The position numbers were made by a program, and so were the translations under genes. The notes under the pieces were generated by a model. It searched no databases and was not told where the DNA came from. It saw only the letters and a program-made list of their open reading frames with translations. From an archaeon (GTDB taxonomy: Archaea > Asgardarchaeota > Thorarchaeia > Thorarchaeales > Thorarchaeaceae), in assembly GCA_024276825.1 (NCBI GenBank), contig JAJRWI010000033.1, positions 32,001-96,000 on the forward strand: DNA of 64,000 bases, in the 5' to 3' direction. Shown here piece after piece: positions 12,879-56,239 of the stretch. How positions within the stretch are numbered: position 1 is the first letter of the stretch; every line of letters begins with the position of its first letter.

Positions 12879-12994
12879 GCCCGGATAGCCAAGCGGTTAC
12901 GGCGGCAGCCTGGAGACGCACACACATGGTGTGTCAGAACAGGCAGCTGCTCTCCCTTTGGGAGGCGCGAGTTCGATCCTCGCTCCGGGCGCCA
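12879..12994 (+). tRNA. tRNA-Ser(GGA) with a ~29-nt intron at 37/38 (12916-12944) and encoded CCA
   Basis: Acceptor GCCCGGA/TCCGGGC, anticodon stem GCAGC/GCTGC with CT-GGA-G, long variable arm CTCCC-TTT-GGGAG, T arm GCGAG-TTCGATC-CTCGC, discriminator G. Confidence 0.93.
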
Positions 12995-15082
12995 CGCCTC
13001 TTGCACCATATAATTAACTCATAAATTATTCGATATTTTGGGGGTACCAGTTTTATGTTTTAGAGTTTATAAGGGGGATGGTTTTAAAAATATAAATAAA
13101 ATTTGGGCAAAATTGGAACTCTGTAGATTTAATATTAAGCGTTATTATTACTTATTTTTCAAAATACAGGAGTTATAGAGTTTTTGCTTAATAAGTTTAA
13201 ATATTATCGCTAGTATAAAAATACGAGGTTAATAACGAAATGCGAAGAAACAAGGATGGTGAACTTAACAGCTAGAACAGGTCAGAAGTTTAAATATTCA
13301 GGTGAATAAAATGGCCAATACGATGGGCGTAGTCATAGCAGTGAAAGTACCAATAAAAACTGATAGAATGACTAAAAGAGCAAGACAACGATTACGACAA
13401 ATCGTTGGCCGAGACACCAGAACAATAAAAGCTCACTTGGGAGTAATTGAGCAGCATGAAAAGCAGCTAATTATTGGAAGGAGAAAAACAAGGATAAACG
13501 AGTCATTATTGCACGAGTTGACTTTGACAGCAATTTATGTGAAGAAAGGAGCATCCCAAAGGCTTTCAGTACTTCATGATTTGAAACAGAGATTCCAGAG
13601 AATTTCGCAAAATGAACTAGCAGAGTGTCGACGCACCGCGATAGCAATATGGGAATCATATCTTGCTTTAAGAGAGAAGAGAGCAAGTGTATCTAGACCT
13701 ACAAGCAAAAACAGATCAGGAAGAATTCCCAGATGGATTTTCACTCAAAGGTTCAATTTGATTGAGGACAATAACTCAGCAGCACGATGGTGGTTGGATA
13801 TTCGTGATTCTTTAGACTCACGAAGATTGAATCGGAGAACACATAGACGATTGAGGATACCACTATCAATCTCACCAATCCATCTTGAACAATTGTCAAA
13901 AGGAAAAATCAAGGCAATTCAGATATTCACAAAGGATGGAAAATGGTGGGTCACATTTTCAGTACAAATCGAATTTGAAAAACTTCCTGAAGAACTCAAG
14001 CCTCTAGCAGTATTGGGCATAGATCTAGGAATAAAGAAAACCATATGCAGTACACTCTTAACTGAGTCAAAAGTTTCTGAAACAAGATATTTCAAGCAAG
14101 ATGAAAAAATAGCCTTGATGGAAAAGTATGACCGACTGGTTTCTTCATTGCAAATTCAGAGAGATAATCATTCTAGTGAAGGTGTAATTCAACGATTGAA
14201 GGCAATTCGTCGAAAGAGACAGCGAGTTTCAATTGAGTATGACAGACTAATCGTTCATCAGCTTCTTGAGTATATTGCTGAGCTTGAAAAAAAATATACA
14301 TTGTACATAGCCATTGGGAAGGTATTTGGGATTCGTAATACTGCAAAACGTGGAAATAGGAGAGGTAAAAGATTCCGAGGAATGATTCATAGATGGACAT
14401 TTCGAAGAGTCACAAATATGATAAAGCATAGTTTAGCACAAAGAGGATGGGTTACAGAAGGCAAGGATTCCAGAATTATCCTTGTTCACGAGGCATGGAC
14501 AAGTATTATTTGTTGGAAATGTGGTCACAAGGGTCGTCGTCCAAAGCAGTCACTCTTTATATGCCCCCATTGTGGATTTAAAACAAATGCGGATCGAAAT
14601 GGCTCGTTAAATATTGCTCGGCGCTCCATTAGGCTCATTCGTCACTTGAATGAGAGTGGACTAGGGCGTTGGTCGTCTCCAGAGAGAGGGACAGCCCCGA
14701 AAGCCCAAGGGAAAATTTCTCGAGGGAAGTCTACACTCCCCAAGAGACCACCAATCTTGATGAAAGGGGAGTCCGCGGTTGTTCGCAGTGTCCAAATGGA
14801 CCTTTTCAGTTTTTGTGAGAAAACTGATTTGAGCGATCATGACCCTGCCGTGGAAAAAGCCGTGGAAAATCTTACTGCTGTTGAAAGTGATGTTTCAACA
14901 TCAAAGCAGAAGAAGGAAGCCAGGTCTATGGGAGGAATGCCATTCCAATGATAATAGACAAAGTCCTTGCTAACTCTATATTTGCAGTATGGAGAGTGGT
15001 GACACTTGGCAGGGAAAGGGTGGAACACGGAAGTCTGAAGTTGAGTTCACTCATCTAATTGACAGGTCAGCTCGCTCCGGGC
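12979..15082 (+). mobile_element. AT-rich, tRNA-adjacent segment carrying only tnpB, bounded by the 12-bp direct repeat CTCGCTCCGGGC
   Basis: Repeat at 12979-12990 (tRNA 3' end) and 15071-15082; 13000-13300 is visibly more AT-rich than flanking genes. Confidence 0.5.
13302..14951 (+). CDS. tnpB: TnpB-family RNA-guided endonuclease (large, rearranged RuvC-II); no adjacent transposase
   Basis: RuvC-I LGIDLG; RuvC-II position AIGKV with alternative Glu in VHEAWTS; Zn ribbon CWKC..CPHC; RuvC-III NADRNGSLNI; ~110-aa C-terminal tail. Confidence 0.9.
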   Translation: MNKMANTMGVVIAVKVPIKTDRMTKRARQRLRQIVGRDTRTIKAHLGVIEQHEKQLIIGRRKTRINESLLHELTLTAIYVKKGASQRLSVLHDLKQRFQRISQNELAECRRTAIAIWESYLALREKRASVSRPTSKNRSGRIPRWIFTQRFNLIEDNNSAARWWLDIRDSLDSRRLNRRTHRRLRIPLSISPIHLEQLSKGKIKAIQIFTKDGKWWVTFSVQIEFEKLPEELKPLAVLGIDLGIKKTICSTLLTESKVSETRYFKQDEKIALMEKYDRLVSSLQIQRDNHSSEGVIQRLKAIRRKRQRVSIEYDRLIVHQLLEYIAELEKKYTLYIAIGKVFGIRNTAKRGNRRGKRFRGMIHRWTFRRVTNMIKHSLAQRGWVTEGKDSRIILVHEAWTSIICWKCGHKGRRPKQSLFICPHCGFKTNADRNGSLNIARRSIRLIRHLNESGLGRWSSPERGTAPKAQGKISRGKSTLPKRPPILMKGESAVVRSVQMDLFSFCEKTDLSDHDPAVEKAVENLTAVESDVSTSKQKKEARSMGGMPFQ

Positions 15083-20180: not shown

Positions 20181-20526
20181 GCCCTGGTGCAGGGAGTAGC
20201 CCCAATTTTGTTCGGTCATCCCCCGTCACCAGGAGATGACTTTACGACATCAGACTATGCCCCCTACCCTCCACCTCGGGCCGACACTTCATTGGTGGAT
20301 TCTTGGGGTTGCTACCCGGTGATGGACCGTTTCAACCCGGCCAGACCACTACTCAGCAGCTTGAGTGCTGCATCATCGCTTGGCATGATCTGGAGGTGTC
20401 GTTTCTGTTTCCAGAGCAAGGCTCTCACCTTCCTGCTCTCGCAGGACCGGCGTCGGCATGTAGTTGGGAGCTTCCTCAGCTCCAGTCGAGTGACCGGTAC
20501 CGTCAGTCGTGCTCCTGCTCCAGGGC
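20181..20526 (-). ncRNA. rnpB: RNase P RNA
   Basis: Minus strand: P1 GCCCTGGAGCAGG/CCTGCACCAGGGC, CR-I GAGGAAGCTCC, CR-II ACAGAAA, CR-III TGAAAC, CR-V AACAAAATTGGGGCTA. Confidence 0.92.
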
Positions 20527-26282: not shown

Positions 26283-26894
26283 TTGATGATGATGAACAAG
26301 ATTGACTTCAAGAAAACCCTCAAGGAACTCTATCTGCCTCCAAGGAGGCCCGTGCTCGTGGATGTTCCCGAGATGCAGTTCCTCATGATCGACGGTGCAG
26401 GACCGCCCGAGAATGAAGAGTACCAGTCCGCCATTCAGATTCTCTATGGGGTCTCATTTCCTATGAAGTTCAAGCTCAAAAAAGCTGGTGTTGTGGACTA
26501 TACGGTCCCCCCTCTTGAAGGCCTTTGGTGGGTTGAGGCCTCTGACACCTTTGACATCTCTCAGCGTGATGATTGGCGATGGACTGCAATGATAATGCAG
26601 CCAGAACAGGTCACACAAGACCTCGTCATTGAAACAATCGAGGAGGTCGAAGAGAAAAAGGGAATTGAGATTCAAAACCGCCTGCGACTGGAAACATTTC
26701 ATGAGGGGCGCTCAGCACAGATCATGCACATTGGCCCTTACAGTGCTGAAGGACCGACTATCCAGAAACTCCACGACTTCATTGAGGCTGAAGGTCTCTC
26801 ACCTAGGGGAAAACATCATGAGATATACCTCAGTGATCCTCGCCGTGCCGCTCCTGATAGACTTAAGACTGTGATTAGACAGCCAGTTTCATAG
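26283..26894 (+). CDS. GyrI-like small-molecule-binding domain protein (likely start ATG 26292)
   Basis: KIDFKK..LY, PLEGLWW, HIGPY..E, HHEIYLSDPRR, KTVIRQP. Confidence 0.9.
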   Translation: MMMMNKIDFKKTLKELYLPPRRPVLVDVPEMQFLMIDGAGPPENEEYQSAIQILYGVSFPMKFKLKKAGVVDYTVPPLEGLWWVEASDTFDISQRDDWRWTAMIMQPEQVTQDLVIETIEEVEEKKGIEIQNRLRLETFHEGRSAQIMHIGPYSAEGPTIQKLHDFIEAEGLSPRGKHHEIYLSDPRRAAPDRLKTVIRQPVS

Positions 26895-26939
26895 TTGGAT
26901 AGCAATCAAAAGAACATCTAATGATATACAGTAAAATTG

Positions 26940-26954
26940 AGGGGGGGTTAAATA
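26940..26954 (+). promoter_or_regulatory. Putative BRE/TATA promoter for the stand-alone RNA
   Basis: Purine run followed by TTAAATA (26948-26954), with no + strand gene downstream. Confidence 0.5.
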
Positions 26955-26955
26955 G

Positions 26956-27309
26956 TCTCATCAGAGATCAAAGTCTGAAATGTGCCCAGTGCCATTCCTG
27001 GGTGGACGGGACTGAGATGTCCAAGAATGTCCAATTTACAATGAACGGCACAGACAATATGAAACCACCCTGTGTGAGCACGACGACCCCGCCGTGGTAG
27101 GAAATGCAGAAACCCCCATTGTGTCTGAATATAATGCGACCGGGACAACATAGGGAGAAGGAGGCCAGGTCCCTGTTCATGAGTACAAAGCCCCTGCGAA
27201 CACCGATGTTTCGGTGGGTGGTGACATCTGCAGGGGAAGGGCTGAACGCATGAGTCCTGTTCAGACGAGTTCATCAAGTGACAAGTCTGAACAAGATTAG
27301 GTTGTCGGA
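26956..27309 (+). ncRNA. Stand-alone homologue of the tnpB 3' (omega-like) RNA
   Basis: Blocks GACCCCGCCGTGG (27085), AGAAGGAGGCCAGGTC (27156), ACAAAGCCCCTGC (27185), GTGGTGACA (27218), GAGTTCA (27267), TGACAAGTC (27279) and GTCGGA are collinear with 14841-15096. Confidence 0.75.
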
Positions 27310-27320
27310 AAAATAAGAAT

Positions 27321-27346
27321 GAAGGAAGGCTCACAGCCTTTCCTTC
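27321..27346. terminator. Hairpin between the convergent ncRNA and actin
   Basis: GAAGGAAGGCT-CAC-AGCCTTTCCTTC, with T-rich sequence downstream on both strands. Confidence 0.55.
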
Positions 27347-27359
27347 TTGTTCTACTAGA

Positions 27360-28499
27360 CTAGATACACCTGTGTATGACTTCAGGGCCCGCTTCCTCGA
27401 ACTCCTTGCGAGTCACCCACATCTTCTGGAATGTCTTAAGTGACGCGATGATGGAGCCGCCAATCCAGACGCTGTACTGGCGTTCTGGTGGAGCGATGAT
27501 GCGGACCTCGATGTTTTCGGGTACGAGTTCGGTGATCTCCTTGTGGAGTCTCTCCTTGAGGCCTGGGAACATAGTGGAGCCTCCTGAGAGGACGATGTTT
27601 GCGTAGAGATCACGTCGCAGGTCGACATCACAGTCCTTGATTGCCTGAACGATGTGTTCGTCGAGTGGGACGGTGTCGAGTCCAATGGCACTGGGGTTGA
27701 AGAACAATTCAGGTGCCTGGAACCTCTCTGCGCCTACAGTGATGACCTCACCATCGGGCATCATATAGGGTCTGTCGACGCCTGCCTTGTCAGCGACGGT
27801 CTGCTCTCTCTCGGGGTCAAGAGCCACGTAGCAGAGTTTCTCCTTGATGTCTCTGACGATCTCTTTCTCAGCACCGCTGACGAAGCTCTTACCTCTCTGA
27901 CGCAGGAGTCTTCGGAGGTACTCGGTAATATCGCGTCCTGCGAGATCGATTCTCTTGATAGCGTGGGAGATAGCGAACCCCTCATAGATGGGTACGATGT
28001 GAGTAACACCATCACCAGAGTCAATGACCAGGCCAGTGGTTCTTCCTGACGCATATAGCGACATGACTGCCTGGGTAGCAACATACACTGCAGGCACATT
28101 GAACTGATCAAACATCACAGAGGCCATACGTTCTCTATTTTCTCTTGGGTTGTACGGTGCCTCAGTCAATAGGACTGGGTTCTCGCTGGGGTCAACCTTG
28201 AGGTCGTTATAAAAAGTGTAAGACCAAATCTTCTCAATTGCGTCCCAGTCGTCAATCTTTCCATGTGTGATTGGATAGACGAGCTTCAAAACACCTCTGA
28301 GATTGATGGCCTCCTCACCGATATAGTAATCACGTGTGTAGTGATCAACATCAGTCATAATGCTCTCATAACGTGGATAACCAATCAGTGTGGGCCATAC
28401 GGACCGGGGCTGGTCTTCACCTGCATAGCCATTTTTGCTAAGCCCTGTACCATTGTCAATGACTACAGGCTTCGCAGCTAGAAATTCATCTTCAGCCAT
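27360..28499 (-). CDS. Actin (Lokiactin-type)
   Basis: [64 protein letters not shown]. Confidence 0.97.
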
Positions 28500-38369: not shown

Positions 38370-38515
38370 CCACTCATTTCTAGTTGGACAATCTCGGACA
38401 TCTGAGTTCCGTCTGCCTAGAAAATGGCACCGGGAACATTTCGAAAGTGAGTTTCATAAGACTCCCAATAAACTTGCATAATTTCAGACCTTTAATTAGT
38501 TCTTTATTTGATGAG
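38370..38515 (-). repeat. Partial copy of the 5' region of the stand-alone RNA locus
   Basis: Minus strand GAAATGTTCCCGGTGCCATTTTCTAGGCAGACGGAACTCAGATGTCCGAGATTGTCCAACTAGAAATGA aligns with 26977-27044 GAAATGTGCCCAGTGCCATTCCTGGGTGGACGGGACTGAGATGTCCAAGAATGTCCAATTTACAATGA. Confidence 0.75.
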
Positions 38516-55969: not shown

Positions 55970-56239
55970 TTAAGGATTTTGGCCTGTGACAAAGTCTGTT
56001 GTCTGCTTGCAACTCCATGCCCATGAGAGATACGAGTTCATTGCCGCCCTGAGCGCTGTCAGATCTCCTGCATGTATCGTGATAAATAATGTGGCCCCCT
56101 CCACCCGTATCTCCACTCTCGCCCTGTCTGTGGGGGAGGAAGTGGTTTCAGGTATGAGAGCATTTTTAATTATCTCTGCGGTTTCTTTAGTGTCAACACA
56201 AATTGTGATGGTTGCACTAATTTCAATAATCTTGTTCAC
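55970..56239 (-). CDS. pcc1: KEOPS subunit Pcc1
   Basis: ALIPE, DLTALRAAMNSYLSW. Confidence 0.9.
   Translation of the reverse strand: MNKIIEISATITICVDTKETAEIIKNALIPETTSSPTDRARVEIRVEGATLFITIHAGDLTALRAAMNSYLSWAWSCKQTTDFVTGQNP

Follow-up and report, generated by a model that had tools for sequence, protein, structure and literature searches.

Can a stand-alone copy of a tnpB 3′-end RNA serve as a guide RNA for a nuclease encoded elsewhere, or is such a copy debris of the insertion sequence from which it came? The question is raised by positions 26940–27310 of the window, by which we mean the whole stretch of 64,000 nucleotides analysed here (contig C24:32001-96000 of a 2.9-Mb archaeal assembly that is 98% complete). 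A first-pass annotation had described these positions as one structured RNA, kept under structural selection and expressed in trans. Our analysis points to a composite instead. We consider it likely that two decayed fragments of mobile elements meet in this stretch, namely a miniature of IS607 type (repeat A) and the right end of a tnpB element (element B), and, as part of the same judgement, that the window copy of B is an immobile, probably functionless remnant. The features on which this reading is built are collected in Table 1.

Table 1. Coordinates of the features at the composite locus, of the resident tnpB and of the dispersed B elements (window positions unless a contig is named).
Feature	Position	Strand	Basis
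GyrI-like gene, left neighbour of the composite stretch	26283-26894	+	Pfam PF06445, E 4e-20
Repeat A, probable IS607-type miniature element	~26894-27049	+	~45 BLAST matches in genome; consensus and boundaries from aligned copies
Element B, 5′-truncated right end (omegaRNA-type scaffold) of a proposed tnpB-only insertion sequence	~27050-27306	+	Family alignment and comparison with G001 and G002
Scaffold core, three-way junction of helices 2-6	27154-27251	+	Covariance model R1, 96 bits, E 1.9e-21
Terminal 9-bp stem beside the element end	27258-27293 (27258-27266 with 27285-27293)	+	97.4% of cells paired, 18 genome copies
Guide position, ancestral actin-downstream flank	27307-27326	+	GGAAAAA..GAAGG at the same place in G001 and G002; no second exact genome match
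Hairpin and T-rich run, actin 3′ terminator region, outside the element	27322-27346	.	Conserved after the actin stop codon in both G001 and G002
Actin homologue, right neighbour of the composite stretch	27360-28499	-	Pfam Actin, 437 bits
tnpB, only full-length copy of its family in the genome, 549 aa	13302-14951	+	PF07282; NCBIfam guided_TnpB 102 bits; PDB TnpB/Cas12f matches
tnpB-linked scaffold, homologous to 27064-27306	14821-15070	+	Core 14909-15030; R1 120.8 bits; 0/32 pairs broken
B elements of ~150-240 nt	many on C28, C35, C56		
B elements of 270-310 nt	C24:27939-28208; C7		
B elements of 636-667 nt	C28:81876-82511; C4:71389-72056		

Two repeats between a GyrI-like gene and an actin homologue

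Searched against the whole genome, 26940–27310 returned separate sets of places for query bases 1–109 and 125–367: bases 26940–27048 match ~45 places, and 27064–27306 match a different set of ~12. The stretch is thus two things. Rfam has no family at the locus; in the window only RNase P RNA and one tRNA were matched, the former being an archaeal RNase P RNA at 20185–20522 on the minus strand (RF00373, 169 bits).

Alignment of all copies of repeat A with their flanks yielded a consensus of ~170 nt, whose end ...TGTCCAATTTACAATGAACGG falls at 27048/27049 and reads ...ACAATGAACGG in the window. The repeat starts upstream of 26940, near 26894, with a left end that is either eroded or overlaps the stop codon of the GyrI-like gene. 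Features formerly credited to the structured RNA belong here. The TTAAATA box at 26948–26954 lies inside repeat A and is no part of the B copy, and the TGTCCAA at 27028, formerly listed as a block shared with the tnpB end, is part of the terminal inverted repeat of A, an arm of which is found at 27018–27034 as TGTCCAA-nnn-TGTCCAA. This inverted repeat is doubled (TTGGACAnnnTTGGACA ... TGTCCAAnnnTGTCCAA), a TTTAAATA box is present in most copies, and the window contains another match to the repeat at 38384–38442 on the minus strand.

At C81:166257-166808, repeat-A ends bracket a 550-bp remnant with a 143-aa ORF, in which a TnpB zinc-finger domain scores 29.3 bits, above the curated cut-off, and the N-terminus gives a weak match to serine recombinases (resolvases; 18.4 bits, E 0.0035). 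The remnant has the appearance of a deletion derivative in whose ORF the weakly matching recombinase N-terminus has become fused to part of a TnpB zinc finger. The ends that A has in common with this remnant support its assignment to IS607, with the weak recombinase match (E 0.0035) as the link on which the assignment depends; neither an intact IS607 element nor an intact serine recombinase was found in this assembly. Repeat A resembles IS607-derived miniatures in ends common to a remnant with serine-recombinase and TnpB zinc-finger traces, and also in terminating in GG, the IS607 recombination dinucleotide. On C81 the 3′ half of A follows the TnpB zinc-finger remnant, which raises the possibility that A, too, is a right end of IS607 type or a scaffold for a guide RNA; were it a scaffold, its 'guide' at the present locus would be the first bases of element B.

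Element B has firm homology from 27064 onward, preceded by weak homology that begins at ~27050, right where A ends. Other copies in the genome match 27064–27306 with E-values of 1e-50 to 1e-71 which, with a covariance-model value of 2e-21, rule out chance similarity to the family. These copies are 78–90% identical to the window copy, and the resident tnpB 3′ end is ~73% identical, with indels. The ordered blocks reported at first pass hold in place from GACCCCGCCGTGG (27085) onward, within the homologous interval 27064–27306, and do not extend to the whole stretch. Alignment with tnpB-linked copies sets 27064–27160 against the last ~43 codons of tnpB, so that the earlier statement that no tnpB coding remnant is present proves half true.

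The 3′ boundary of B is sharp, after GGTTGTC (27306), and was compared with two genomes of the same genus, G001 and G002, in which the actin gene has 80% DNA identity. Downstream of the actin stop, both share with the window the hairpin GAAGGnnGGC...GCC...CCTTC and (G/A)GAAAAA.., and this homology starts at 27307; element B therefore ends at 27306. The last of the ordered blocks, TTAG..GTCGGA, divides accordingly into element, up to ...GGTTGTC, and ancestral flank, represented by GGAAAAA. The downstream hairpin that had been attributed to the B copy is the actin 3′ hairpin, kept in both congeners and, on this comparison of sequences, older than the insertion of B. B is absent from the actin site in G001 and G002 alike, and no B copy was found anywhere in G001, a single contig. 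The corresponding sequence in G001 is empty-site-like, with ...AATGATA followed directly by GGAAAAA. For annotation, this means that an intergenic 'structured RNA' of these archaea can consist of the right ends of two different transposons joined together, and that promoter-like boxes or hairpins beside such RNAs may belong to neighbouring features.

A guide-RNA-type scaffold shared with the resident tnpB

The resident tnpB gave a single tblastn match in the genome, with no second copy, and is, by its profile and structure matches, a gene for a genuine RNA-guided TnpB. The core domain of the protein ends near residue 445, and its tail of ~100 aa overlaps the scaffold. Alignment to a solved TnpB places a glycine (IAIGKV) at the usual RuvC-II glutamate position, a replacement described in PMC10691335.

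Several observations concern the surroundings of this gene. An intron-bearing tRNA at 12879–12991, found by Rfam and missed by ARAGORN, ends in ...TTCGATCCTCGCTCCGGGCGCCA, and its 12-nt 3′ end, CTCGCTCCGGGC, recurs at 15071–15082, right after the last scaffold base (15070), where a guide would start; the tnpB element, 2.1 kb long, is thus bracketed by a tRNA 3′-end repeat. The motif GTTCACTCA lies at 15045–15053, inside the terminal loop of the tnpB-linked scaffold, and has equivalents in relatives, GT(G/T)TCACTCA, and in the stand-alone family, GTTCA(C/T)CA. In Asgard aCas1-linked tnpB loci this motif is found downstream of a hypervariable region (PMC10691335); the sequence upstream of it is conserved here, not hypervariable.

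The alignment used for the fold comprised seven long copies, that of the window included, together with the scaffold linked to the resident tnpB and nine sequences from relatives, of which three lie beside a full tnpB. RNAalifold yielded a consensus of six helices and 32 pairs, in which 97.3% of cells are paired as against 40–53% with the partners slid, and 16 pairs have changes on both sides as against 3–6 when slid; none of 500 shuffles reached the observed pairing values, which are to be read with the structure derived from the same alignment and the sequences being related. The stems proposed at first pass, CCTTGC:GCAGGG versus CCCCTGC:GCAGGGG and CTCTATA:TATGGAG versus CACCGA:TCGGTG, reappear as helices 4 and 5 of this fold. 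The terminal stem varies only through G-C/G-U or A-U/G-U wobble pairs, which indicates that its constraint is specific to the plus strand.

A covariance-model search had been suggested at first pass, and it detected eight full cores in this genome, one linked to tnpB and seven stand-alone (93–106 bits), that of the window among the latter. Across 81 genomes of the same archaeal family, the search found scaffold cores in 53, often with tens of copies per genome and with more than 400 hits altogether. Homology to the tnpB 3′ end, a structure with compensatory changes and a sharp boundary between scaffold and guide are what is expected of an omegaRNA scaffold, and by these traits element B is a scaffold of the omegaRNA type. 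In this respect the first-pass annotation is borne out: a scaffold of the TnpB omegaRNA type, backed by homology and covariation, does recur in a dispersed family.

Among this genome's copies, the one in the window has the most broken pairs (3 of 32), two of them in helix 3 and the third in helix 1, upstream of the core. Four of its eight private changes fall in stems and two of these break pairs, numbers that, though small, fit neutral decay. Over the seven long stand-alone copies, variable columns make up 26% in stems and 51% in loops, and eight private substitutions in stems were observed where ~16 are expected. Such a stem-sparing pattern could reflect selection acting in the lineages that replicate or directly on the copies, and the deficit hints at post-dispersal constraint on at least some copies. 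The stand-alone lineage is also set apart from the tnpB-linked copies by the absence of an 18-nt hairpin segment, which in the latter spans the tnpB stop codon, and by guide-proximal ~60 nt so divergent that the right-end nhmmer profile misses the resident copy.

Right ends and probable deletion derivatives across the genome

An nhmmer profile of the last 100 nt identified 19 B right ends on nine contigs, each with unique flanks. All 18 aligned copies terminate at ...AGGTYGTC and then diverge. At least 13 copies keep a shared left end, which makes them elements of 150–670 nt. The 5′ module shared by many copies, GTAAATTTCAGAAGTGGAAAA..., contains an ATG and MAKKLGVST-like codons; since these resemble the N-terminus of the resident TnpB (MANTMGVV), the module is taken to be the left end of a tnpB element, that is, its leader and first codons. 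The right ends attached to this left end vary greatly in length (Table 1): the longest copies retain sequence homologous to the last ~100 tnpB codons, and many members keep only the last 65–95 nt, too little for a scaffold. Remnants consisting of 'tail plus right end' are found in relatives too, with tblastn matches to residues 453–547 only. The ends of B elements are asymmetric and have neither inverted repeats nor target duplications, which is the style of the IS200/IS605 superfamily.

The first-pass annotation had set its proposal against the possibility that the copies are ordinary insertion-sequence remnants, and it is the latter that we find, with left and right ends and nested deletions down to 150 nt. 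From this architecture, we infer that the B family arose from a tnpB insertion sequence by ordinary nested internal deletions. A point against this origin is that neither this genome nor the 80 relatives sampled yielded the autonomous parent: in the relatives, a 668-nt copy with both left and right ends matched nothing closer than 66–78% over short pieces. The expected parental type is similar to IS1341-type (tnpB-only) elements in having a single tnpB, a long structured 3′ region and a sharp boundary between scaffold and flank, whereas the resident tnpB element is a diverged relative, with a left end unrelated to that of B by BLAST.

The 20 nt that follow each of the 19 copies are all different, and no copy's guide has a second exact site in the genome. 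The guide position thus holds local flank, unlike the acquired guide set of a CRISPR-like system. The family compares more closely with PATE/MITE-like IS200/IS605 elements, in which two asymmetric ends, many copies, a lack of any intact gene and a right end carrying a guide-RNA scaffold are likewise combined. Its copies are dispersed among unrelated flanks, and at least 13 members have both ends without an intact gene, whereas the window copy is a right end only. A further difference concerns the enzyme: a cognate Y1 TnpA (PF01797), which would act on such elements in trans, was not found in this 98%-complete assembly.

In the 81 related genomes, TnpB of this protein family was found in 56, a distribution that the scaffold, with 53, mirrors. 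With Y1 TnpA in only four of the genomes sampled, the mobiliser of these elements is not evident. Cas1 was considered as a transposase, following the aCas1-TnpB idea for Asgard archaea (PMC10691335), and rejected: a single Cas1 was found, at the edge of a contig and with small ORFs after it, and it adjoins neither tnpB nor B. Genomes G086 and G065 contain 10 and 4 scaffold cores, respectively, with tail-sized tnpB matches only (best E 2.6e-19 and 1.1e-15); scaffolds thus persist where no full-length tnpB of the family was found. As these two assemblies are 87–90% complete and fragmented, we take them to indicate that scaffold-only genomes may exist. In the closest single-contig congener, neither tnpB nor scaffold was found.

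Individual copies offer further detail. Contig C12, 14.5 kb long, starts and stops inside inverted B copies (1–259 and 14230–14487) and could be an invertible or composite segment; the assembly breaks at B repeats, so the copy numbers given here are lower bounds. At C28:14083-14125 a second partial right end (AGTTCATCGTCTGATAGTAAGTTTGAATAAATTCAGGTTGTAA) immediately follows that of a 166-nt mini-element, which suggests that the terminal loop of one element served as the insertion site of another. In 12 copies bearing the left end, the four bases preceding the last flank base are purine-rich and mostly end in C, e.g. GAAC, GAGC, AGAC and GGAC, and represent a weak candidate for a transposon-adjacent motif.

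Origin of the window copy and competing readings

We propose that B represents the last ~250 nt, and hence the right end, of an IS1341-like, tnpB-only element in the IS200/IS605 superfamily. In an intact element this segment would overlap the tnpB 3′ end and encode the omegaRNA scaffold; in family members, right ends of variable length would be attached to a left end made of the 5′ leader and the first ~11 tnpB codons. The shared fold would then be inherited from autonomous ancestors, where it was probably selected as the guide-RNA scaffold of TnpB and perhaps also as a single-strand right-end hairpin.

In the window copy the left-end module is missing and repeat A adjoins instead, the first ~175 nt kept in longer copies being absent. 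On C67, another B fragment also adjoins an A copy. The position of the A/B junction, exactly at the end of A, suggests an A-associated rearrangement, by which the window copy would have lost its left end. As a test of recombination between A copies, homologues of the actin-flanking genes of G001 were sought in the present genome, and none was found. Having lost its left end, the window copy cannot move; most likely it is a fossil, fixed in place and beginning to decay. The structural selection previously claimed for it finds no support in a copy that is truncated, slightly decayed and missing at this site in congeners. Three points run counter to the fossil reading, namely that the core is nearly intact at 96 bits, that a TATA-like box is located ~100 nt upstream in the right orientation, with a T-rich stretch after the guide position, and that private substitutions avoid stems over the seven long stand-alone copies. 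If the copy were transcribed, for instance from the TATA-like box of A, the product would be a scaffold fused to actin-downstream flank, which the one TnpB of this genome might in principle accept in trans, by analogy with published stand-alone omegaRNAs.

Extended to the whole set, this possibility becomes the rival that survives best: the stand-alone scaffolds, including the window copy, would be working trans-acting omegaRNAs that are loaded by a single TnpB and provide it with several guides without a CRISPR array. Consistent with it, seven stand-alone copies keep a complete covarying core whose stems vary less than its loops, the resident tnpB is intact with no broken pairs in its own scaffold, repeat A supplies a TATA-like box upstream, and stand-alone omegaRNAs do act in trans in another organism, according to PMC10691335, which cites Altae-Tran 2021. 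Yet the stand-alone scaffold shares only ~73% identity with that of the resident tnpB, lacks the 18-nt hairpin segment and differs so much in its guide-proximal ~60 nt that the family right-end model does not find the resident copy, and the window copy is additionally short of its first ~175 nt and has three broken pairs. The distribution of the family also speaks against it, as every guide is local flank with no other target, many members are reduced to the last 65–95 nt, some relatives have scaffolds and no full-length tnpB that could be found, and the closest single-contig congener has neither. We regard this reading as unlikely. Slightly less probable still is its most specific form, in which the seven full-core scaffolds would be a working trans guide set for the single RuvC-II-glycine TnpB of an actin-bearing (Asgard-like) archaeon, with the window copy expressed from the promoter of an IS607 miniature and the stem deficit reflecting selection on the dispersed copies.

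Neither form would introduce a new idea. Stand-alone omegaRNAs acting in trans have already been published (Altae-Tran 2021, as summarised in PMC10691335), and PATE elements 'often encode omegaRNAs' that need TnpB in trans (PMC10055086, Meers et al.); several guides for one TnpB is thus an existing concept. Like the stand-alone omegaRNAs of OMEGA systems (TnpB/IscB), B shares homology with the 3′ end of a tnpB resident in its genome and is dispersed without a nuclease or transposase gene, each copy having a different flank. It differs from them in that their trans activity is published, whereas B is known here from sequence; in its identity of ~73% to the one resident scaffold and, for the window copy, the missing left end; and in its host, an actin-bearing archaeon whose TnpB has a RuvC-II glycine. 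For the biology of TnpB, the locus is an archaeal example of a known pattern in which scaffold derivatives outnumber the nuclease, here with seven full cores and 19 right ends to one tnpB. It is a real but ordinary case that opens no new mechanism, stand-alone scaffolds being already known.

Another reading would give B a role independent of TnpB, as a structured RNA recruited by the host or a regulatory element of the actin 3′ end, e.g. an antisense RNA or terminator module. B indeed adjoins the actin terminator hairpin, would read antisense into the actin 3′ end and is largely intact in structure. This reading is nonetheless very improbable, as B is missing at the site in two congeners that keep both actin and the hairpin, identical modules occur in unrelated contexts, and the hairpin is older than the insertion. 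A gene for a small protein, encoded on the minus strand (ORF 26948–27334, 128 aa), open here and, in its B part, also in four of the seven long copies, is hardly credible, given that it has no Pfam match, spans two unrelated repeats across a junction unique to this locus and has a frame that is interrupted in the tnpB-linked copy as well as in others.

A minor observation concerns the 11-mer TGAACAAGATT, which occurs three times in the window where 0.11 occurrences are expected (26293–26303, 27288–27298 and, on the minus strand, 56228–56238). As a candidate variable guide it was rejected: the occurrence in B (27288–27298) is conserved scaffold in at least eight copies, and the other two matches are coding N-K-I contexts without extended homology. 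We read its recurrence, including that at the start of the GyrI-like gene, as chance.
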